Positions 5,951-14,011 are shown, counted from the stretch's first letter. The stretch: DNA of 24,000 nt from Desulfobacterales bacterium (GCA_032127815.1 JAQBHK010000368.1:7779-31778), one strand, 5' to 3'. Made by a program: numbers and translations. Notes: generated by a model from the letters alone, not told the origin.

Positions 5951-6109
5951 GAACGGTCACCTTAAATCTTTACCAAATCTTTACAGTATCTTTATACGCC
6001 CTTCATCCTGCTGTCTTATATTCCGTACAGGGAAAAATCGAACGCCGGTCTTTACTAGGACCGAATGCGTATTATTCTAAATCATGTTCACAAAAAGTGG
6101 AGGTGTCTC

Positions 6110-7297
6110 ATGAAAACCTTAAATATTACGATCATCGTCCTGGTAGCGGTACTGTTGGGCTACCACCAGGTCAGCAGCAGGGATGGAAATATGGAGGAAA
6201 AGATGAACGATAAACCCCAAAAGACTCAAACGGCTGTCTTTGCCGGCGGCTGTTTTTGGTGCACGGAATCTGATTTTGAAAAAATAGAAGGCGTGTTCGA
6301 GGCCATCTCAGGCTACACCGGCGGTCGCCAGGCCAATCCCACCTACCGCCAGGTTTCCGCAGGCGGCAGCGGGCACATTGAGGCCGTCAAGGTGGTTTAC
6401 GATCCGGACAAGATTACCTACGAGGAACTGCTCGAGGTGTTTTGGAGGCACGTGGATCCCACGGATGCCGGGGGCCAGTTCGTGGACCGGGGCTCTCAAT
6501 ATCGCAGTGCCATCTTCTATGCCAACGAGCAGGAGAAGCGCCTGGCCGAGGAATCCAAGAAACGCCTGGAAGCCACGGGCCACTTCGGCAAGCCCATCGT
6601 ATCCGATATTTTGCCGCTGGGTCCCTTTTACACGGCAGAGGAGTATCACCAGGATTACTACAAAAAAAAACCGATTCGCTATCACTATTACCGCTCCGGC
6701 TCCGGCCGGGAACAGTTTTTGGAAAAGGCATGGAAAGACATGCAGTCCGGGATGAAGGATGAGATGCAAAAGACAGCAATGACCGCGGACCCGATGAAAG
6801 AGGAAGTGGGCGGCGGCATGTCACCAAAGATGGATACCGGCATGAAAAATGCCGGCGGAATGTACACCCTGCCCGATGACGAGGAACTGCGCCGGAGGTT
6901 AACACCCATGCAGTACAAGGTAGCGCGGCAGGACGGCACCGAGCCGCCCTTTAACAACGAATACTGGAATAACCACCAAGCGGGCCTTTATGTGGACATT
7001 GTCTCGGGCGAACCGCTCTTCAGCTCCACGGACAAGTTCGATTCTAAAACCGGCTGGCCGAGCTTCACCCGGCCTCTGGTTCCGGAGAATGTTGTCCAAA
7101 AGTCTGACCGGAGTTTTTTCATGACGCGCACCGAGGTGCGCAGCAAGTATGGCGACTCGCACCTGGGGCACCTGTTCAACGACGGGCCTGAGCCTACGGG
7201 CCTGCGTTACTGCATTAACTCGGCCGCTCTGCGGTTCATTCCCAAGGCGGACCTTGAAAAGGAAGGCTACGGGAAATATCGGAAGCTGTTTGAATGA
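6110..7297 (+). CDS. msrAB: Exported bifunctional methionine sulfoxide reductase MsrA-MsrB fusion
   Basis: ATG at 6110 preceded by a GTGGAGG RBS; the track start at 6065 lacks an RBS. N-terminal hydrophobic signal or anchor [18 protein letters not shown]. MsrA active site GGCFWC. MsrB block [15 protein letters not shown], without the zinc CxxC pairs. Confidence 0.9.
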
Positions 7298-7329
7298 TTA
7301 ATTAACATATTGCTTTTCTTTTTTGTTTA

Positions 7330-7594
7330 GACAGGATCAACAGGATCTTCAGGATTTACTTATAATTTTCACAGTTTCTCCCGTCATGCGGGACAGGCGA
7401 AAGAAACTGTGAAAGACTAATCCATCTGTCGGTTGAGATTAGATCATCAAGCTCGAATTACAGAAGTGACTGTGGCTTCCAGCTATTACTTATTCGCCGC
7501 AGGCGATGATGTTTTAGCCGTTTCATCTGCTTGTCCCGCAAAGCGGGAGAAACGGCTAAAGATTAAAAATCCAGTTAATCCTGTACATCCTGTC
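7330..7594. mobile_element. MITE-like non-coding element, ACAGGAT-repeat TIR family, copy A
   Basis: TIRs are GACAGGATCAACAGGATCTTCAGGATTT and, as reverse complement of the right end, GACAGGATGTACAGGATTAACTGGATTT. Two perfect internal hairpins: 7367-7379 / 7402-7414 (13 bp) and 7513-7524 / 7549-7560 (12 bp). No plausible ORF. A second copy lies at 22834-23076. Confidence 0.5.
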
Positions 7595-7802
7595 AAAATA
7601 AATTCTTAGCGACTGACCGAAAACATTACGGTGATGCCGCTGCAAAGTATTCCCGAGGTCTGGTTGTATACTGCGCCAGTATCCAGTATCCCGTATCAGG
7701 GCTTCCTGTGCCGCTCCTCCACCAGCGCCTTGGCGTGAAACACTCAGCTTCCGATCAGCAGGATCGATCATTTGCCGGCGCCTCGGCGGCATATAAAAAA
7801 AA

Positions 7803-7840
7803 TTGACATTATATGCATAATGTGACAATTTTATGCATAA
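7803..7840 (+). promoter_or_regulatory. Putative vapBC-1 promoter/operator with a duplicated TGACA-N3-4-TATGCATAA motif
   Basis: TTGACATTATATGCATAA (7803-7820) and GTGACAATTTTATGCATAA (7822-7840) form a direct repeat. Each contains the palindrome ATGCAT and lies 14 nt upstream of the vapB ATG. I could not place a clean -10 box. Confidence 0.35.
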
Positions 7841-7853
7841 AGAGGGGGCGATA

Positions 7854-8045
7854 ATGAGAACAACGCTTGATTTACCTGAAGATTTATTAGATGAGGCTAT
7901 GAAAGCTACCCAAATTAAGACAAAGACCAGAGTCATAATCACAGCCTTGGAAGAATTAATTAGAAAGTCAAAAATTTCAGAGTTAAAAGAATTTAAAGGA
8001 AAAGTTGATTTGGACATTGATTTAGACACTATCAGAGGGCGTTAA
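7854..8045 (+). CDS. vapB: VapB-type antitoxin (MRTTLDLPEDLL class, DUF2191-like)
   Basis: ATG at 7854 with a GAGGGGG RBS; the track start at 7833 lies inside the operator. The N-terminus MRTTLDLPEDLLDEAMK is typical of this antitoxin class. Its stop overlaps the PIN gene start (TAATG at 8043-8047). Confidence 0.75.
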   Translation: MRTTLDLPEDLLDEAMKATQIKTKTRVIITALEELIRKSKISELKEFKGKVDLDIDLDTIRGR

Positions 8046-8425
8046 TGCCGGTATTAGTCGACACTTCAGTGTGGATTGAGTATTTCAGAAGTGGAAACAA
8101 TTCTGAAAAACTCGATTTCTTAATTGATGAAAATCTCCTTGTAACAAACGATCTTATTTTGGCAGAACTAATACCATTCCTAAAAGTTCAAAACAAAAAA
8201 ATTATTATCGATTTATTGCTTAATATCAAAAAATTAGGTTTGTCTATAAATTGGAAGCAAATCATTGAGTATCAATACAAATGCCTAAAAAATGGTTTGA
8301 ATGGTGTTAGTATACCGGATCTTATAATTGCCCAAAACGCAAAACAAAATCATTGCGAAATTTACTCTCTGGACAATCATTTTAGCCTAATGAAGGATAT
8401 CATTCATCTTCAGATACAAATATAA
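8045..8425 (+). CDS. vapC: PIN-domain ribonuclease toxin VapC
   Basis: 126 aa. Acidic PIN residues sit in the expected contexts: VLVDTSV, LILAELI, IPDLIIA, SLDNHF. Coupled to the upstream antitoxin. AT-rich: my hand counts are 23/60 and 16/60 G+C on two sampled lines. Confidence 0.85.
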   Translation: MPVLVDTSVWIEYFRSGNNSEKLDFLIDENLLVTNDLILAELIPFLKVQNKKIIIDLLLNIKKLGLSINWKQIIEYQYKCLKNGLNGVSIPDLIIAQNAKQNHCEIYSLDNHFSLMKDIIHLQIQI

Positions 8426-8517
8426 GCTGAAGACACACCGAGCAAACGCTTTCACTGCGATTTTCCGGATCATTTCTTTGTGCGTAAGAATATGCTGAAT
8501 ATAAACCCGATTTGTGC

Positions 8518-8564
8518 TTGACAACAACTCCCAGCGGTTGCATAATGGTTTCACAATGGAACCA
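8518..8564 (+). promoter_or_regulatory. Sigma70-type promoter and operator for vapBC-2
   Basis: TTGACA (8518-8523), 17 nt spacer, CATAAT (8541-8546). An imperfect inverted repeat TGGTTTC..GGAACCA (8546-8564) follows, ahead of the AGGAGG RBS. Confidence 0.5.
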
Positions 8565-8579
8565 TTAGGAGGTGTTTGT

Positions 8580-8822
8580 ATGGCAACGGTAACGGTAAAG
8601 AATATACCTGATGAACTTTACGATCGGCTTAAGTCAGTCGCAGAAATAAATCGGCGTTCCATCAATAGCGAGATTATCATGTGCATTGAAAATGCTGTTG
8701 TAAGTCACCGAATAAACCTCGACGAGGTGCTTGAGAATGCTCGTCAGCTCCGTCAATTGACAGCCGAACATCTGATAAGTGATGAGGAATTCAATCAGGC
8801 AAAAGCAGAAGGTCGGCTATGA
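8580..8822 (+). CDS. vapB: Ribbon-helix-helix (Arc/FitA-like) antitoxin
   Basis: ATG at 8580, 7 nt after AGGAGG. MATVTVKNIPDELYDRLKSVAEINRRSINSEII is the typical RHH N-terminus. ATGA overlap with the PIN gene at 8819-8822. Confidence 0.75.
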   Translation: MATVTVKNIPDELYDRLKSVAEINRRSINSEIIMCIENAVVSHRINLDEVLENARQLRQLTAEHLISDEEFNQAKAEGRL

Positions 8823-9220
8823 TTGTCGTTGATACAAATGTTATCGGCTATCTTTTTCTATCAAGCGAGCAATCTTTTTTAGCCGAACGTGCCCTACAAA
8901 AGGAGAATGAGTGGGCCGCACCGATTTTATGGCGTAGCGAATTTTGCAATGTACTAACTCTTTATATGCGCAAAAATATCATTAAGTTGGAGCAAGCTCA
9001 GCGCATAATGAATAGTGCGTTGAAATTATTGAGGGGTCGAGAATATGAGGTTCCGTCATATGAAGTTCTGAGGCTTGCCTCAACAAGCAAATGTTCTGCT
9101 TATGATTGTGAGTTTATCGCTACTGCAAATGATCTGAAAGTCCCCTTAGTAACTGTTGATAAGCAGCTGCTGCGTGAGTTTTCTTCAGTGGCCGTATCAT
9201 TGAATTCGTTCAGCGAATAA
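8819..9220 (+). CDS. vapC: PIN-domain toxin VapC
   Basis: 133 aa. MIVVDTNV, conserved acidic positions (SAYDCEFIA, VTVDKQL). Translationally coupled to the RHH antitoxin. Confidence 0.85.
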   Translation: MIVVDTNVIGYLFLSSEQSFLAERALQKENEWAAPILWRSEFCNVLTLYMRKNIIKLEQAQRIMNSALKLLRGREYEVPSYEVLRLASTSKCSAYDCEFIATANDLKVPLVTVDKQLLREFSSVAVSLNSFSE

Positions 9221-9261
9221 TTACAAGGCAAGACAGCAGCCAACCGGCAAGTGGAACAGAA

Positions 9262-9315
9262 GGCTAACATCTCGCTGCTCGAGCCGCTCCTCAAGCCCCG
9301 AATACGTAGTTTGCC
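9262..9315 (+). other. Weak attC-like site candidate after vapBC-2
   Basis: GGCTAAC ... GTTTGCC bracket an imperfect stem (ATCTCGCTGCTCGAG / CTCAAGCCCCGAAT). It shares the 9-mer CGAGCCGCT and a CCCAAG block, at nearly identical spacing (34 vs 35 nt), with the site after DUF169. Confidence 0.2.
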
Positions 9316-9527
9316 CAAGTAGTTTTCTGAGCGCTACTAAGCATTGAATTTTTTGATTTTATCGTTTATGGATTAATGAGAAGCTAATTTATTTTGAAGT
9401 CTGTTTCAACCCACATTTTGGCGCATATTGGATTTATGACGTTATAGATGAAAAAATAATCACTCATGAGTTGCAGAATGACGGATGGACATCATTTCTA
9501 CAATATCAGGAATATTACAAAAATAGA

Positions 9528-9586
9528 AAATAACATGCGGTTGGTAGGGACGCTCGTTCCTCGCCCCCCCACCCGCGCCGTTATGT
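9528..9586 (+). other. attC-like recombination site candidate (a)
   Basis: 59 nt: AAATAAC - ATGCGGTTGGTAGGGACGC - loop - GCCCCCCCACCCGCGCC - GTTATGT. The ends are 6/7 complementary. The stem pairs in blocks (GCGG/CCGC, TGG/CCA, GGG/CCC, GC/GC), and the unpaired bases are mostly on the left arm, with some on the right. It ends 29 nt before the DUF169 ATG. Confidence 0.4.
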
Positions 9587-9615
9587 GCCAACAGTAGGTT
9601 GAAAGGAGCGGCCTC

Positions 9616-10386
9616 ATGGATGGTCAGATAGAAAGGCTTCTAGAAGCTCTCGAAAAACACTGCCGCCTTGTTACGATGCCTGTGGCGATCAAGTTAGCCA
9701 AAAAAGGCGAGGCTCCTATGGAGAAGACCAAATATCCTCTTGAGCATATTGGAAATCGTTTAGCCGTTTGCCAGGGCATGACCATCGCAAGGACGTTCGG
9801 TTGGACGATGGCTTTTAGAAAGGACGACCATGCTTGTCCATTGCCCCGCGTTTTTATGGGACACATAAGTCCGGACAAATTCTTGGAAGGAACTGTCGCT
9901 GGATTCTATCAGGATGAATCTGAATGCATGAGGAAAATGGAGACTTCATATCCGAGATGGCCAATGGATTCCTTTCAAGAAATTTGGTTGTCTCCGATTA
10001 ACAAGTGTGAATTTGTCCCTGATTTAGTTGTTGCCTACGGGAGCCCAGCCCAGATACTTACGCTGATCCAGGGGGGCAATTATAGAGTCGGATCAGGGAT
10101 TAAGTCCATAAGTAGTGGTCGCTGTGGCTGTTCCTCATGGATAGCTGGAGTCCCCCAAACTGACGAATGCACCTATATGATTCCCGGTCCAGGAGAAAGG
10201 ATATTTGCCGGAACGCAGGACTACGAGATGTCTTTTGCTGTGCCTTATTCCAAGTTCGATCAGGTAATTGATGGCTTGAAGTATGTCCACGGTCACGGTT
10301 CTTATAGATATCCTGTACCGAATTTGGGCGTGTTGGCAGAACCACGAATACCTGAAAGATATCATGAAATCGAATCAGATACGTAG
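9616..10386 (+). CDS. DUF169 family protein (COG2043-like)
   Basis: 256 aa with AAAGGAG RBS. Family-typical blocks: VAIKL, CQG..IAR, conserved Cys-rich SGRCGCS and IPGPGERIFAGT. Confidence 0.8.
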   Translation: MDGQIERLLEALEKHCRLVTMPVAIKLAKKGEAPMEKTKYPLEHIGNRLAVCQGMTIARTFGWTMAFRKDDHACPLPRVFMGHISPDKFLEGTVAGFYQDESECMRKMETSYPRWPMDSFQEIWLSPINKCEFVPDLVVAYGSPAQILTLIQGGNYRVGSGIKSISSGRCGCSSWIAGVPQTDECTYMIPGPGERIFAGTQDYEMSFAVPYSKFDQVIDGLKYVHGHGSYRYPVPNLGVLAEPRIPERYHEIESDT

Positions 10387-10411
10387 TTTCATGCAACTGT
10401 TAACAAGGGCA

Positions 10412-10494
10412 GCACATAACAACCGCTTCAACTAGGACGGCTTGCTTTGCTGGGCCGCCTGTTAAGCGAGCCGCTGCAAATTAAACCGTTGGCA
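10412..10494 (+). other. attC-like recombination site candidate (b)
   Basis: GCACATAAC (10412-10420) is the exact reverse complement of GTTATGTGC (9580-9588), which opens the DUF169 module. Next comes the stem CGCTT[C]AAC[T]AGG[A]CGGC (10424-10441) / GCCGCCTGTTAAGCG (10454-10468), with three extrahelical bases on the left arm. Possible right cores are GTTAAGC (10461) or GTTGGCA (10488). Confidence 0.4.
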
Positions 10495-10549
10495 TGCGTA
10501 ACCCAAGAGGTTACAATATGGCAGATGATTAAATCATTTTTTTTGTTTC

Positions 10550-10578
10550 TTGACTATCAAAGGAAATGTAATTACAAT
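10550..10578 (+). promoter_or_regulatory. Sigma70-type promoter and operator of mazEF
   Basis: TTGACT (10550-10555), 17 nt spacer, TACAAT (10573-10578). The perfect palindrome TGTAATTACA (10567-10576) overlaps the -10 box, nested in AAATGT..ACATTT. Confidence 0.55.
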
Positions 10579-10609
10579 GTAGTAACATTTCTTGTCAAGG
10601 AGATCAAGT

Positions 10610-10864
10610 ATGAGAGCACGAATAGTAAAAATCGGGAATTCCCAAGGCATACGAATTCCAAAACCCCTGCTCGAACAAACGGGAATCATGGATGACGTTG
10701 AGTTAGAAGTGGAACAGAATCAGATAATTATACGACCTATATCAAATCCAAGGGCCGGATGGGATGATGCTTTTAAGGCTATGGCTAATAGGGGTGATGA
10801 TATAATAATAGATGAGGCTGAAAATATTTCACATTCTTGGGATGACGACGAATGGCAGTGGTAG
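10610..10864 (+). CDS. mazE: MazE/AbrB-fold (SpoVT-AbrB) antitoxin
   Basis: ATG at 10610 after an AAGGAG RBS. MRARIVKIGNSQGIRIPKPLLEQTGI is the looped-hinge-helix signature, followed by an acidic C-terminus. Overlaps mazF by 13 nt. Confidence 0.8.
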   Translation: MRARIVKIGNSQGIRIPKPLLEQTGIMDDVELEVEQNQIIIRPISNPRAGWDDAFKAMANRGDDIIIDEAENISHSWDDDEWQW

Positions 10865-11181
10865 CAAATCGATTTGATGTATATTTGGCAAATCTCGACC
10901 CTACAGTTGGTTCAGAAATCCAAAAAACCAGGCCGTGTTTGGTTATTTCACCTGATGAAATGAACACACACATCCGCACCGTAATAGTCGCCCCGATGAC
11001 CACAGCCGGGAAAGATTATCCCACCCGAGTCTCATGCACATTCAAAAAGAAAAAAGGACAAATTGTCTTAGACCAGATACGAACTATCGATAAAACACGA
11101 CTCGTAAAAAAACTCGGTACTATTGATCCGGAAACACAATTAAAAGTTATTGCAATCCTGCAACGGCTATTTTCGTTCTAA
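10852..11181 (+). CDS. mazF: MazF/PemK-family endoribonuclease toxin
   Basis: 109 aa. FDVYLANLDPTVGSEIQKTRPCLVISPDEMN..VIVAPMTT..LDQIRTIDKTRL matches the PemK/MazF fold signature. Confidence 0.9.
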   Translation: MAVVANRFDVYLANLDPTVGSEIQKTRPCLVISPDEMNTHIRTVIVAPMTTAGKDYPTRVSCTFKKKKGQIVLDQIRTIDKTRLVKKLGTIDPETQLKVIAILQRLFSF

Positions 11182-11185
11182 AATT

Positions 11186-11246
11186 GCCCAACATCCGCAT
11201 GCACAGGACGCCCATAAACTCGCGCCTGTGATGCCCGGCGTTCTGC
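11186..11246 (+). other. attC-like recombination site candidate (c)
   Basis: 61 nt, starting 5 nt after the mazF stop. GCCCAAC (perfect RYYYAAC) - AT CCG CAT[G]CACAGG[A]CGC - 10 nt loop - GCGCCTGTG ATG CCCGG C - GTTCTGC. Extrahelical G and A lie on the left arm. No T-tract follows. Confidence 0.4.
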
Positions 11247-11308
11247 CCCATATAACTTTTGACATTTTCTCTTAACTTGACTATTTTTTTAAAAAAGGGG
11301 ATGGTCAA

Positions 11309-11509
11309 ATGAAAACAATGGCCATAAGTGAATTTAAGACACATGCGTTAAAGGTATTAAACGAGGTCGCAAAATCCCAAGAAACCATCGTCATAACGAA
11401 AAGAGGTAAGCCCCTTGCTCAAGTCGTTCCCTACCGCAAATCCCCGCAAGTCCCCAATATTAGAAGTAACGATTCAGATTGGTATAGACTAAAAAACGAA
11501 AGAAGGTGA
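11309..11509 (+). CDS. Phd/YefM-family antitoxin-like protein with a divergent C-terminus
   Basis: MKTMAISEFKTHALKVLNEVAKSQETIVITKRGKPLAQVVP is a classic Phd/YefM N-terminal domain. AAGGGGA RBS. Confidence 0.7.
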   Translation: MKTMAISEFKTHALKVLNEVAKSQETIVITKRGKPLAQVVPYRKSPQVPNIRSNDSDWYRLKNERR

Positions 11510-11513
11510 AGAA

Positions 11514-11699
11514 ATGCAGAACGTGGAATGGGAAATTAAAGGTGACAAACTAATTATTGAGATAGATTTGACAAAGGACTTCGGACCCTCTAAATCTGGC
11601 AAAACAGTAACAATCGCCAGTACACGGGGTAACCAGAAGATCGAGGGTACTGATGCTGTAATCGGTTTGAACGTTTACAAATATCCAGAGAGCGGATAA
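11514..11699 (+). CDS. Hypothetical 61-aa protein, coupled to the Phd-like gene
   Basis: ATG lies 4 nt after the Phd stop and 7 nt after an AGAAGG RBS. The ORF has coding-like composition (KLIIEIDLTKDFGPSKSGKTVTIASTRGN). I cannot assign a family. Confidence 0.5.
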   Translation: MQNVEWEIKGDKLIIEIDLTKDFGPSKSGKTVTIASTRGNQKIEGTDAVIGLNVYKYPESG

Positions 11700-11742
11700 T
11701 ATCCACGAAAACTACGCATTTGCTTTAAGAAAGATCGCAACA

Positions 11743-12210
11743 ATGGGAAAGAGATATTTCGACGATCTAAGGGATGGAGAACATCTTCATTGTCAGCCCG
11801 TCGTAATGACGCGAGAGGCTATTGTCGATTTTGCAAAAAAATTTGATCCGCAACTGTTCCATATTGATGAGAATGCAGCGAACAAATCGCTTTTTGGAGG
11901 GCTAATTGCATCTTCACTTCATACCCTCTCGGCCTGCACTCGGGCAGTCGTAGACGCACAGGGCAATATCGCAATTCTAAGCGGTGTCGGCATGCATGAG
12001 GTCAAAATGTTCAATCCGGTGCGTCCCGGTGATGTTCTTGCGGTAAATGCCTGGTGGGCGGAGCTGCAAAGATCAAATAGTAAACCGGACCGTGGTTTTG
12101 CGTCAATTAAGTGCAATGTTACCAATCAGCGAAATGAACCTGTCATTGAATACGGTTATCGTTACTTAGTTGCCTGTAAGAATATCGAGATGCCGCGGTT
12201 CCCAACATGA
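11743..12210 (+). CDS. MaoC-like hotdog-fold dehydratase/hydratase
   Basis: 155 aa. FAKKFDPQLFHIDENAA...FGGLIASSLHTLS matches the MaoC dehydratase signature. Confidence 0.85.
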   Translation: MGKRYFDDLRDGEHLHCQPVVMTREAIVDFAKKFDPQLFHIDENAANKSLFGGLIASSLHTLSACTRAVVDAQGNIAILSGVGMHEVKMFNPVRPGDVLAVNAWWAELQRSNSKPDRGFASIKCNVTNQRNEPVIEYGYRYLVACKNIEMPRFPT

Positions 12211-12297
12211 TATATTTTGGTAAATCTATCAGTTGGTTATCTTGATTTTGCGTCCGTTTGGTTTTTCCACAGAGCGCGCCTGTTCACAAATCAAAAT

Positions 12298-12326
12298 TTG
12301 ACAACAATTACCGTAAATAATAAGAT
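12298..12326 (+). promoter_or_regulatory. Putative hcp promoter with an overlapping palindrome
   Basis: TTGACA (12298-12303), 17 nt spacer, TAAGAT (12321-12326). The palindrome TCAAA-A-TTTGA (12291-12301) overlaps the -35 box. Confidence 0.3.
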
Positions 12327-12382
12327 ACATCGAATACTTCTTTGTAACCTAAATAGTGTCCATCCAGAAAGGGAGGAATGCT

Positions 12383-14011
12383 ATGTTTTGTTATCAATGT
12401 GAACAAACCGCCAAAGGTACGGGGTGCACAATACAGGGTGTTTGTGGTAAACAGCCCGAAGTCGCCGCCTTGCAGGACTTGCTCATTTATGCACTCATGG
12501 GACTCTCCCAGGTTGCTGTGGAAGGTCGCAAAGTGGGCGTCTTGGACCCGGACGTCAATGCCTTCACCGTAAAAGCCGCCTTTGCCACTTTGACAAATGT
12601 GGATTTTGACCCTGATCGTTTTATGGATTTGATCGGCCAGGCCGCGGACAAGCGTGAAAAATTAAAAGCAAGTGTTACCGCCGCCGGCGGCAATGGGGTT
12701 TGGCCTGACGGACCTGCAACCTTGGCACCCAAAGCCACCTTGGACGATTTGGTCAAGCAAGGCGAGCAGGTCGGAATAAAATCGTATCCGGCCGACAACC
12801 CGGACATCCTTTCATTGAAGCACACCGTACTGTACGGCATTAAGGGCGTGAGCGCTTATGCGGACCACGCCCTGATTTTAGGGCAGGAGGATGACAGCGT
12901 TTATGCATATGTCCATGAAGGACTGGCTGCCATTCAAAGAGATGATCTGGGGATAGACGACTGGGTGGGGATGGCTCTCAAATGCGGTGAAGCAGCCTAT
13001 AAAGCCATGGAACTGCTCGATGCCGGCAATACGAACACATACGGCCACCCTGTGCCGACAAAGGTTCCGCTGGGCTACAAGAAAGGCAAAGCCATCCTTG
13101 TCTCCGGTCATGATTTGAGAGATCTCGAAGAACTGCTCAAGCAGACTGAAGGAAAAGGCATTAACATCTACACCCATGGTGAGATGCTCTCAACCCACGG
13201 TTACCCCGGATTAAAGCAATATTCGCATTTCTACGGCCAATTCGGTACGGCCTGGCAAAAGCAGATCAAAGAGTTCGCGGCTTTTCCAGGCGCTATTCTG
13301 ATGACCACCAATTGCATTCAAAGGCCCAAAAATGACTATAAAGATAATATATTTACCAGCGGCATGGTCGGCTGGCCGGGCATTCCCCACATACCGGACC
13401 TGAATTTTCAGCCGGTCATCGATAAAGCCCTTGAACTTGGCGGCTTTGAAAAAGACCACGTCGACCAGGAGGTCACGGTCGGCTTTGCCCGTAATGCCGT
13501 GCTCGGTGTCGCGGACAAGGTGATCGAGGCGGTCAAGTCCGGTGCCATTCGGCATTTCTTTCTGGTGGCCGGTTGCGACGGAGCCAAGCCGGGACGGAAT
13601 TACTATACTGAGTTTGTAGAAAAGATTCCCGCAGATTGCATTGTTTTGACCCTGGCGTGCGGCAAATATCGTTTTTTCGACAAAGAGCTTGGCGATATCG
13701 GCGGCATACCGCGCCTTCTGGATGCCGGACAGTGCAATGACGCCTACTCGGCCGTTCAGATCGCTTTGGCCTTAGCAAAGGCATTCGATGTTAAGGTCAA
13801 TGAATTGCCGTTATCAATGATCATTTCCTGGTATGAGCAAAAAGCGGTTTGCGTCCTGTTGGCCCTGCTTCATCTCGGTATCAAGGGTATCCGCCTGGGG
13901 CCGTCGCTGCCGGCGTTTTTAACGCCCAATGTTCTGGAAACCCTGGTGAAAAATTTTGACATCAAACCGATTTCTACGGCTGACGAGGACCTGAAAGCCA
14001 TTCTGGGATAA
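12383..14011 (+). CDS. hcp: Hybrid cluster protein / hydroxylamine reductase
   Basis: ATG at 12383, 6 nt after GGGAGG; the track start at 12356 is upstream of the RBS. N-terminal cluster motif MFCYQCEQTAKGTGCTIQGVCGK, and full-length collinearity with the roughly 540-550 aa Hcp architecture. Confidence 0.93.
   Translation: MFCYQCEQTAKGTGCTIQGVCGKQPEVAALQDLLIYALMGLSQVAVEGRKVGVLDPDVNAFTVKAAFATLTNVDFDPDRFMDLIGQAADKREKLKASVTAAGGNGVWPDGPATLAPKATLDDLVKQGEQVGIKSYPADNPDILSLKHTVLYGIKGVSAYADHALILGQEDDSVYAYVHEGLAAIQRDDLGIDDWVGMALKCGEAAYKAMELLDAGNTNTYGHPVPTKVPLGYKKGKAILVSGHDLRDLEELLKQTEGKGINIYTHGEMLSTHGYPGLKQYSHFYGQFGTAWQKQIKEFAAFPGAILMTTNCIQRPKNDYKDNIFTSGMVGWPGIPHIPDLNFQPVIDKALELGGFEKDHVDQEVTVGFARNAVLGVADKVIEAVKSGAIRHFFLVAGCDGAKPGRNYYTEFVEKIPADCIVLTLACGKYRFFDKELGDIGGIPRLLDAGQCNDAYSAVQIALALAKAFDVKVNELPLSMIISWYEQKAVCVLLALLHLGIKGIRLGPSLPAFLTPNVLETLVKNFDIKPISTADEDLKAILG

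Follow-up and report, generated by a model that had tools for sequence, protein, structure and literature searches.

A probable degraded integron cassette array without a nearby integrase upstream of hcp in an uncultured Desulfobacterales genome

What is the origin of the accessory island of around 5 kb that lies between the housekeeping genes msrAB (an msrA-msrB fusion, 6065-7297) and hcp (12356-14011) in a metagenome-assembled genome (MAG) of the Desulfobacterales? We addressed this question in a stretch of 24,000 nucleotides, hereafter the window, which corresponds to G000:C368:7779-31778 (G-numbers designate genomes, C-numbers contigs, and L-numbers extracted loci). The contig C368 is 36.7 kb long and belongs to a 4.1-Mb assembly of 569 contigs that is 93% complete. 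An earlier note, made from the sequence of the window alone, proposed that the island is a cassette array resembling a CALIN, a grouping of attC sites that has no integron-integrase (Cury et al. 2016, PMC4889954). Our analysis supports this view: attC models match in the island, the island varies module by module in relatives, and no integrase gene (intI) was found. We conclude that the region around 9.37-12.24 kb is very probably a degraded integron cassette array without a nearby integrase, with vapBC operons attached on its left. All the modules and sites described below between 7787 and 12242 are on the + strand.

The island differs from its surroundings in composition and in its homology to related genomes. 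Its G+C content is 0.32 in the first vapBC operon (vapBC-1), close to the one-third counted by hand in the earlier note, and 0.41-0.47 in the other modules, vs 0.52-0.54 in the flanks. When the island was compared by BLAST with 52 genomes of the family, the homology to the sister genomes ended with msrAB (at 7295) and restarted at hcp (at 12366). The modules in between were found singly in other genera, with 83-95% identity. They occur there in other orders and other contexts, and not as one block.

The identification of attC sites required dedicated models. Rfam gave zero matches in the window, even at a permissive gathering level. The energies of the three hairpins proposed earlier (sites 1, 2, and 3) corresponded to z = -1.2, +0.4, and -2.5 relative to shuffled sequences, which is not, taken alone, above chance. 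We therefore built attC covariance models from related genomes. A heuristic of our own (RYYYAAC/GTTRRRY boxes plus a constrained fold) gave around 10 hits per 24 kb, with strand-symmetric boxes, and was kept only for picking seeds in the relatives. The first model, R1, was trained on 23 attC sites taken from cassette arrays of relatives, with the window sequences and the homologues of the mazEF attC excluded. The second, R2, is broader (53 sites) and includes homologues of site 3. Both are purpose-built proxies and not the attC model of IntegronFinder itself. The R1 alignment contains the R''/R' and L''/L' helices and an invariant bulged A within a G-A-C motif, and both sides have changed in 8 of 10 stem pairs. 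R1 is also specific: it produces around 4 hits with E < 0.01 across the 4.1-Mb genome, and all of its 16 hits on 80 MazF loci from many phyla are on the strand of the gene.

These models single out site 3 (11186-11246; R'' GCCCAAC, R' GTTCTGC, crossover G11240/TT, the slash marking the crossover) as an intact attC. It scores 44.8 bits with R1 (E = 2.5e-8) and 58.1 bits with R2 (E = 7e-12 for the whole window), is matched over the full length of the model, including the conserved G-A-C bulge, and is among only about 5 strong hits in the entire genome. Site 1 (9528-9586; R'' AAATAAC, R' GTTATGT, crossover G9580/TT) has kept both boxes around a degenerate, mismatched stem. It is the second-best R2 match of the window (13.1 bits, E = 0.34) and reaches just 9.3 bits with R1. 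Site 2 (10414-10473; R'' ACATAAC) retains its R'' box, stem, and GAC bulge, and the core of its R' box is destroyed: the TT is gone and the R2 alignment reads G--CUGC where GUU is expected. Its R2 match (10414-10477, 9.2 bits) ranks fifth in the window, and it is absent from the R1 list. Finally, a 43-nt attC-like mini-hairpin (12200-12242; TCCCAAC ... GTTATCT) that overlaps the stop codon of the MaoC gene scores 7.3 bits with R2. The tally is thus one intact site, one degenerate, one broken, and one stub.

The three hairpins of the earlier note all exist, and R2 matches each of them on the + strand; some of their details had to be revised. The right end of site 2 had been placed at GTTGGCA (10488-10494). 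We rejected this motif as an R' box, since its position is that of the -35 box of the promoter of a higBA cassette, and the attC ends at G10473 with its TT missing. The unpaired bases, described as entirely or mostly on the left arm, include the bulged G-A-C in site 3 and are symmetric in site 1, with 5 on each arm. A block of about 45 nt said to recur in the island does have two copies, but they share 28 identities over 45 aligned columns. We tried it as a repeat unit of the array and discarded it: its copies are in different, separately conserved units, and so it is no array repeat.

In a local R2 search of 8 kb, which mimics the search that IntegronFinder makes around a first hit, the E-values were 2.5e-12 for site 3, 0.11 for site 1, 0.97 for site 2, and 2.7 for the mini-hairpin. 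At least two attC sites with E < 1 are thus found with the R2 proxy, and R1 passes one site only. The four sites, starting at 9528, 10414, 11186, and 12200, are on the same strand and spaced by less than 4 kb, and the architecture expected of attC (R'' RYYYAAC ... R' GTTRRRY, with extrahelical bases on the 5' arm) was recognized. The best R2 match outside the island has 12.9 bits, which makes sites 1 and 2 unconvincing by score alone. We note that 3 of the 12 R2 hits at noise level fall within around 2% of the search space (P ~0.002, our own estimate).

The borders of the modules in relatives carry more weight than the scores. The mazEF cassette (10541-11240; mazE 10610-10864, mazF 10852-11181) has relatives with 85-93% identity in 12 loci of other genera, with conservation running from 10541 to 11190-11246. 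G/TTGGGCATCATAAAATAAC stands before the module in most of these loci, and the attC sites upstream are mutually unrelated; the window lacks the initial ~30 nt of the cassette. In at least 10 related genomes, mazEF is such a cassette, opening with G/TTGGGC behind attC sites that are unrelated to one another. The attC at its 3' end begins in the relatives with GCCCAAC, which is complementary to the 5' end of the cassette itself (G/TTGGGC). In G049, mazEF is part of a 15-kb array that has at least 9 attC sites detected by the models, plus its own attC found by the heuristic scan; an intI fragment lies 535 nt from the end of this array.

The DUF169 cassette (9581-10473, with the gene at 9616-10386) gives a similar picture. 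The metagenome contig L170 carries it with 91% identity over 9586-10473, within an array of four co-oriented attC sites. The homology to L170 and to a second metagenome contig, L171, starts at 9580 and 9586, with unrelated DNA upstream; in L171, too, it starts at the GTT of site 1. The 5' end of the cassette, TTATGTGC, is complementary to GCACATAAC at 10412-10420, and given the borders of homology with the two contigs, this 9-nt pairing (9580-9588 with 10412-10420) is the cassette's own R'/R''. The homology to L170 stops exactly at G10473, where L170 continues with TTATGC to give an intact R' (19.0 bits, ending CGAGCCG/TTATGC). In the window, CTGCAAATT follows instead, as in a higBA cassette stripped of its four initial bases; the R2 alignment independently reveals the two bases absent from site 2. 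We found no close DNA relative of the DUF169 cassette in the genomes of the family. At the protein level, its nearest homologues (60-71% identity) come from other families of the order and were uninformative, as no attC lies near them.

The higBA-type remnant (10474-10540) had been overlooked in the earlier inventory of six modules. It consists of 67 nt, with a promoter (TTGGCA-17-TACAAT), an operator palindrome, and the first 5 codons (MIKSF), and lacks the first 4 nt of the cassette and anything past codon 5. Its sequence matches the beginning of the higBA cassettes of G004, G006, G021, G030, and G050 with 88-94% identity. In all of these except G030, the cassette opens with G/TTCGCTGCAAATT after unrelated attC sites, and in G050 it ends in an attC starting with AGCGAAC. 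Most of higBA, together with its attC and the initial ~30 nt of mazEF, would have gone in a single deletion that left the 67-nt piece fused to mazEF. The sequence of L170 likewise suggests that the attC of the DUF169 cassette lost its crossover through the 4-nt deletion at the DUF169/higBA junction.

Three modules of the island thus move as units bordered by G/TT, in 12 loci for mazEF, in 4 for higBA, and in 2 metagenome contigs for DUF169. Homology breaks exactly at G/TT in the case of DUF169, of mazEF at the 3' end of its cassette, and of what remains of higBA, and in each of the three cassettes the R'' box is complementary to the cassette's own 5' end. This comparison, which the earlier note had suggested for the G/TT junctions, shows variation by module and not as a single block, and sites 1-3 all lie at real cassette junctions. 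No unit mobility of this kind was demonstrated for vapBC-1, vapBC-2, and the 61-aa module in the relatives compared.

Other modules of the array bear traces of truncation. Upstream of the DUF169 cassette, an open reading frame (ORF) of 58 codons (9357-9533, stop to stop) has no ATG, GTG, or TTG start and ends with a stop inside the first box of site 1. It is the 3' end of a clipped cassette that lost its 5' part. Downstream of site 3 comes the 5' part of a phd-vapC cassette (11241-11443), whose Phd ORF (11309-11509) has a foreign C-terminus. Up to 11443 it shares 90% identity with G033 and G003; beyond this point, Phd runs on in these genomes and a PIN toxin gene comes next. The Pfam match to Phd is limited to the N-terminal half (profile positions 1-44 of 74). 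The cassette was apparently truncated past codon 45, with an unrelated small-gene module (11460-11708, ORF 11514-11699) now joined to it. The "Phd + 61 aa" of the earlier note is hence a fusion of two unrelated modules. More than 20 genomes from several genera carry the second of them with 93-95% DNA identity, preceded there by a promoter region of its own, and a further copy is present in G000:C65. The 61-aa ORF gave no family match; it is a stand-alone small gene and not the toxin partner of Phd. The last module (11743-12242) comprises a gene for a MaoC-like dehydratase (11743-12210) and keeps only the 43-nt stub as an attC-like site. The gene is 90% identical to one in G009:C92 that lies directly 3' of a 49-bit attC (L047:2075-2134) in an array of four attC sites.

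No intI gene was found in the window, as the earlier note had stated, and this extends beyond it. A six-frame search with TIGR02249 gave no match on contig C368, around 15 kb on each side of the island, and none at the cut-off in the 93%-complete genome (the best match has 89.6 bits vs 265). The array has neither an intI gene nor a pseudogene nearby, and no promoter was identified upstream of it besides those of the toxin-antitoxin (TA) operons, which sets it apart from a complete integron. IntI is above the cut-off in 18 of the 52 family genomes. In a sister species, an IntI-like ORF (232.8 bits, IntI being its best-matching family; G005:C303, 454-1386) is located 1.3 kb from an attC. As to orientation, L041 (G049:C18) and L027 (G005:C303) have intI, as a gene or a fragment, on the attC strand with its 3' end toward the array, and G026, G027, G036, and G041 have the usual divergent arrangement.

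The sister genomes tell us where the cassettes may have landed. In G004, G005, and G007, attC sites co-oriented with hcp are found 0.4-1.7 kb upstream of this gene, and G007 has two further attC sites after msrAB. The cassettes upstream of hcp differ in each species, and the flanking genes are 91-96% identical. A cassette locus upstream of hcp is thus common to four species of the genus, with no attC near hcp in seven other genera and no intI remnant at this locus in any of the four genomes compared. With at most 4 sites, of dissimilar sequence, the array does not resemble a sedentary chromosomal integron, which would have over 19 attC sites or be present across a species, with homogeneous attC sites. 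Downstream of msrAB (loci L071, L072, L075, and L076), G004, G005, and G006 share a conserved pair of genes encoding 351 and 282 aa that is absent from the window, and G007 has other ORFs and its two attC sites.

One could go further and regard the interval upstream of hcp as a natural hot spot for cassette insertion, without resident integrase or attI, that resembles attG and is served in trans. The cassettes would then be fixed by micro-deletions at the crossover, such as the loss of 4 nt at G10473 and the absence of GTT before vapBC-1. We consider this unlikely. If it were true, the locus would be a natural record of integron cassettes becoming ordinary chromosomal genes.

It also seems unlikely that the island is a satellite array and not a fossil, served in trans by an IntI encoded on unassembled or unbinned DNA, with sites 1 and 3 permitting excision and capture. 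The genome is 93% complete and in 569 contigs, at least 5 strong attC sites are on its other small contigs, and an IntI-like gene lies beside an attC in the sister species. The content upstream of hcp varies among four species, and different cassettes between flanks that are 91-96% identical imply recent turnover. Furthermore, about half of the CALIN are in genomes encoding IntI (PMC4889954). Yet the six-frame searches of the assembly found no intI or fragment of it, site 2 is without its TT, two cassettes no longer have an attC, and the stem of site 1 is mismatched. At most one composite unit could remain mobile.

The deletion scars on which we rely could also be assembly chimeras, in which reads of different strains or arrays were joined across short shared words. 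Cassette arrays are rich in repeats and often broken or mis-joined in metagenome assemblies, and the msrAB and hcp sides are on separate contigs in all sister MAGs. But microhomology at the junctions (10473/10474, 10540/10541, and 11443-11460) does not exceed 2-4 nt, far under the word sizes of assemblers, and both flanks match sister genomes at 91-96%, so that we find this explanation very improbable.

Even harder to maintain is a generic TA islet assembled by illegitimate or homologous recombination, its hairpins being terminators or chance palindromes: the hairpin energies are within the range of shuffles at two of the three sites, the consensus-plus-fold heuristic finds similar hairpins throughout the window, and the vapBC modules have no attC, but for 9.37-12.24 kb this reading is already contradicted by the 44.8 bits of site 3 with the independent R1, by the G/TT cassette borders in many genomes, by the complementarity of R'' and 5' end in three cassettes, and by the presence of the cassettes in multi-attC arrays and near intI remnants.

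Four points nevertheless weigh against a degraded cassette array. Only site 3 is significant by score, the 13.1 bits of site 1 barely topping the 12.9 bits found outside the island. The attC models are home-made, and R2 was trained with homologues of site 3. The vapBC-1, vapBC-2, and 61-aa modules have no attC in the window or in the majority of relatives, which leaves around 40% of the island without demonstrated integron origin. Lastly, since the MAG is in 569 contigs and 93% complete, an intI could be in DNA that was not assembled.

Taking the island as a degraded array, we propose the following history. Cassettes carrying an ORF of unidentified type, DUF169, higBA, mazEF, phd-vapC, and MaoC would have been brought in by IntI-catalyzed attC recombination in an integron-rich lineage and landed upstream of hcp, the cassette locus of the genus. 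They may have come either from an adjacent integron that was lost or by insertion at a secondary site (10.1101/2022.09.11.507474). The truncations and fusions described above would then have eroded the array, which is presumably now largely frozen since the genome has no detectable intI. The three intact TA operons would be transcribed from their own autoregulated promoters, penalize the loss of the region, and probably stabilize it. The promoterless DUF169 and MaoC genes would be expressed only by read-through from upstream TA promoters.

Pfam confirms the gene calls of the earlier note between the housekeeping flanks: VapB/PIN (7833-8425), a ribbon-helix-helix protein with PIN (8580-9220), DUF169 (9616-10386, E = 7e-42), MazE and PemK (10610-11181), Phd (11309-11509), and MaoC (11743-12210). 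The list of six modules thus holds for what it contains, save for the missing higBA remnant and the Phd fusion. The pairs VapB and PIN, ribbon-helix-helix and PIN, and MazE and PemK are all above the Pfam gathering scores, as expected of type II TA systems, and their antitoxin and toxin genes overlap by 1-13 nt. Promoter-like sites were found before vapBC-2 (8518-8546, 11 of 12 matches), mazEF (10550-10578), and phd (11259-11287), and none before DUF169, which has only a ribosome-binding site. This agrees with the contrast drawn earlier between self-promoted TA modules and DUF169. The overall number of promoter-like sites is no higher than in shuffled sequences.

The left part of the island is of a different nature. 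The AT-rich vapBC-1 operon (7787-8425; vapB 7833-8045, vapC 8045-8425; Pfam VapB and PIN) has counterparts with 84-89% identity in G003, G050, and G046. Two of these relatives begin right after GTT (CGGCATATAAAAA...), where the window has CGG. The vapBC-2 operon (8511-9230) encodes a FitA-like ribbon-helix-helix antitoxin (8580-8822) and a PIN toxin (8819-9220); it is 89% identical to G031:C117, with no attC nearby there. Model scans found no attC after vapBC-1 or vapBC-2, either in the window or in most relatives. The vapBC block also separates two fragments of a hairpin-rich non-coding element (~7690-7745 and 9274-9371), marked by a direct repeat (7701-7719 and 9274-9292). Given the lack of attC and the halves of this element on either side, we treat both operons as TA modules whose mobilization as cassettes is unproven.

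The non-coding element is contiguous in the sister genome G007 (L071, ~960-1130) and has copies in G004, G006, and G010. It is built of units like GCGCTCCTCAAGCCC with a conserved AT-rich tail, and is present in multiple copies in several genomes of the family (L065, L068, L069, and L070). Rfam gave no match for the part at 9274-9371. We rejected GTTTGCC at 9309 as the R' box of a vapBC-2 attC, as homologous elements elsewhere run across this position. In G004:C76 (L075:430-522), a 93-nt fragment of vapC-1 with 98% identity lies around 350 nt past msrAB, at a place matching that in the window. Therefore, vapBC-1 is probably older than the split of this species and that of G004, and is being deleted in the latter.

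Two further elements lie between msrAB and this block. The interval 7315-7604 resembles a miniature inverted-repeat transposable element, flanked by inverted repeats and with two internal hairpins. It has at least 20 full or partial copies in the genome, and a copy is at the matching position after msrAB in G007. The interval 7605-7680 holds what remains of a gene's 3' end. It shares 94% identity with the terminal part (1928-1993) of an ORF on G000:C462, which, by its C-terminal residues, we take to be of the DUF4143 ATPase type. That ORF is located 850 nt before a 33-bit attC (C462:2839-2908).

These results reveal no new mechanism: the element is of a known kind with unusually clear deletion scars. 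CALIN are common and normally only counted by software, whereas the relatives available here permit a base-by-base reconstruction of the decay of an array, with loss of the crossover dinucleotide, fusion of neighboring cassettes, orphaned antitoxins, and survival of intact TA operons. Uncultured Desulfobacterales (Ca. Desulfatibia-like) would join the lineages in which a cassette locus extends across a genus and turns over fast, and genes of the DUF169 and MaoC types are flagged as cassette cargo.

The array shares with the CALIN described by Cury et al. (PMC4889954) several attC sites in a common orientation and spaced at under 4 kb, the lack of intI or its pseudogene within 10 kb, a small size, and a cargo that is mostly accessory or of unknown function. 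It differs from them in having one intact site, the others being mutated or truncated at the crossover, in the several cassettes without attC, and in that its sites were called with home-made models instead of IntegronFinder. Sedentary chromosomal integrons, such as the Vibrio cholerae superintegron, contain promoter-bearing TA cassettes (Richard et al. 2024, PMC13108822). The window likewise has mazEF, higBA, and phd-vapC as self-promoted cassettes among promoterless ones, with the same proposed role, a penalty for loss or excision. Unlike the superintegron, it has neither an integrase nor a large homogeneous array, and 2 of its 3 clearly cassette-borne TA cassettes are broken. Any stabilizing effect here would be putative. 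[quoted passage not shown] The cassettes of the window are similarly in a housekeeping context without attI or intI, but several are in tandem, and no attG-type junction is definable as the left border is obscured by debris. The lone attC hits on other contigs of the genome may be of the SALIN/attG type. A precedent for the locus itself is in Xanthomonas, where eroded chromosomal integrons are at a fixed position downstream of ilvD (Colombi et al. preprint, 10.1101/2025.06.18.660453). The locus studied here differs by its hcp and msrAB neighbors, its occurrence in Desulfobacterales MAGs, and the lack of an intI remnant in four genomes. In both cases, a cassette locus fixed across a genus holds species-specific cassettes, and the integron activity has been lost.

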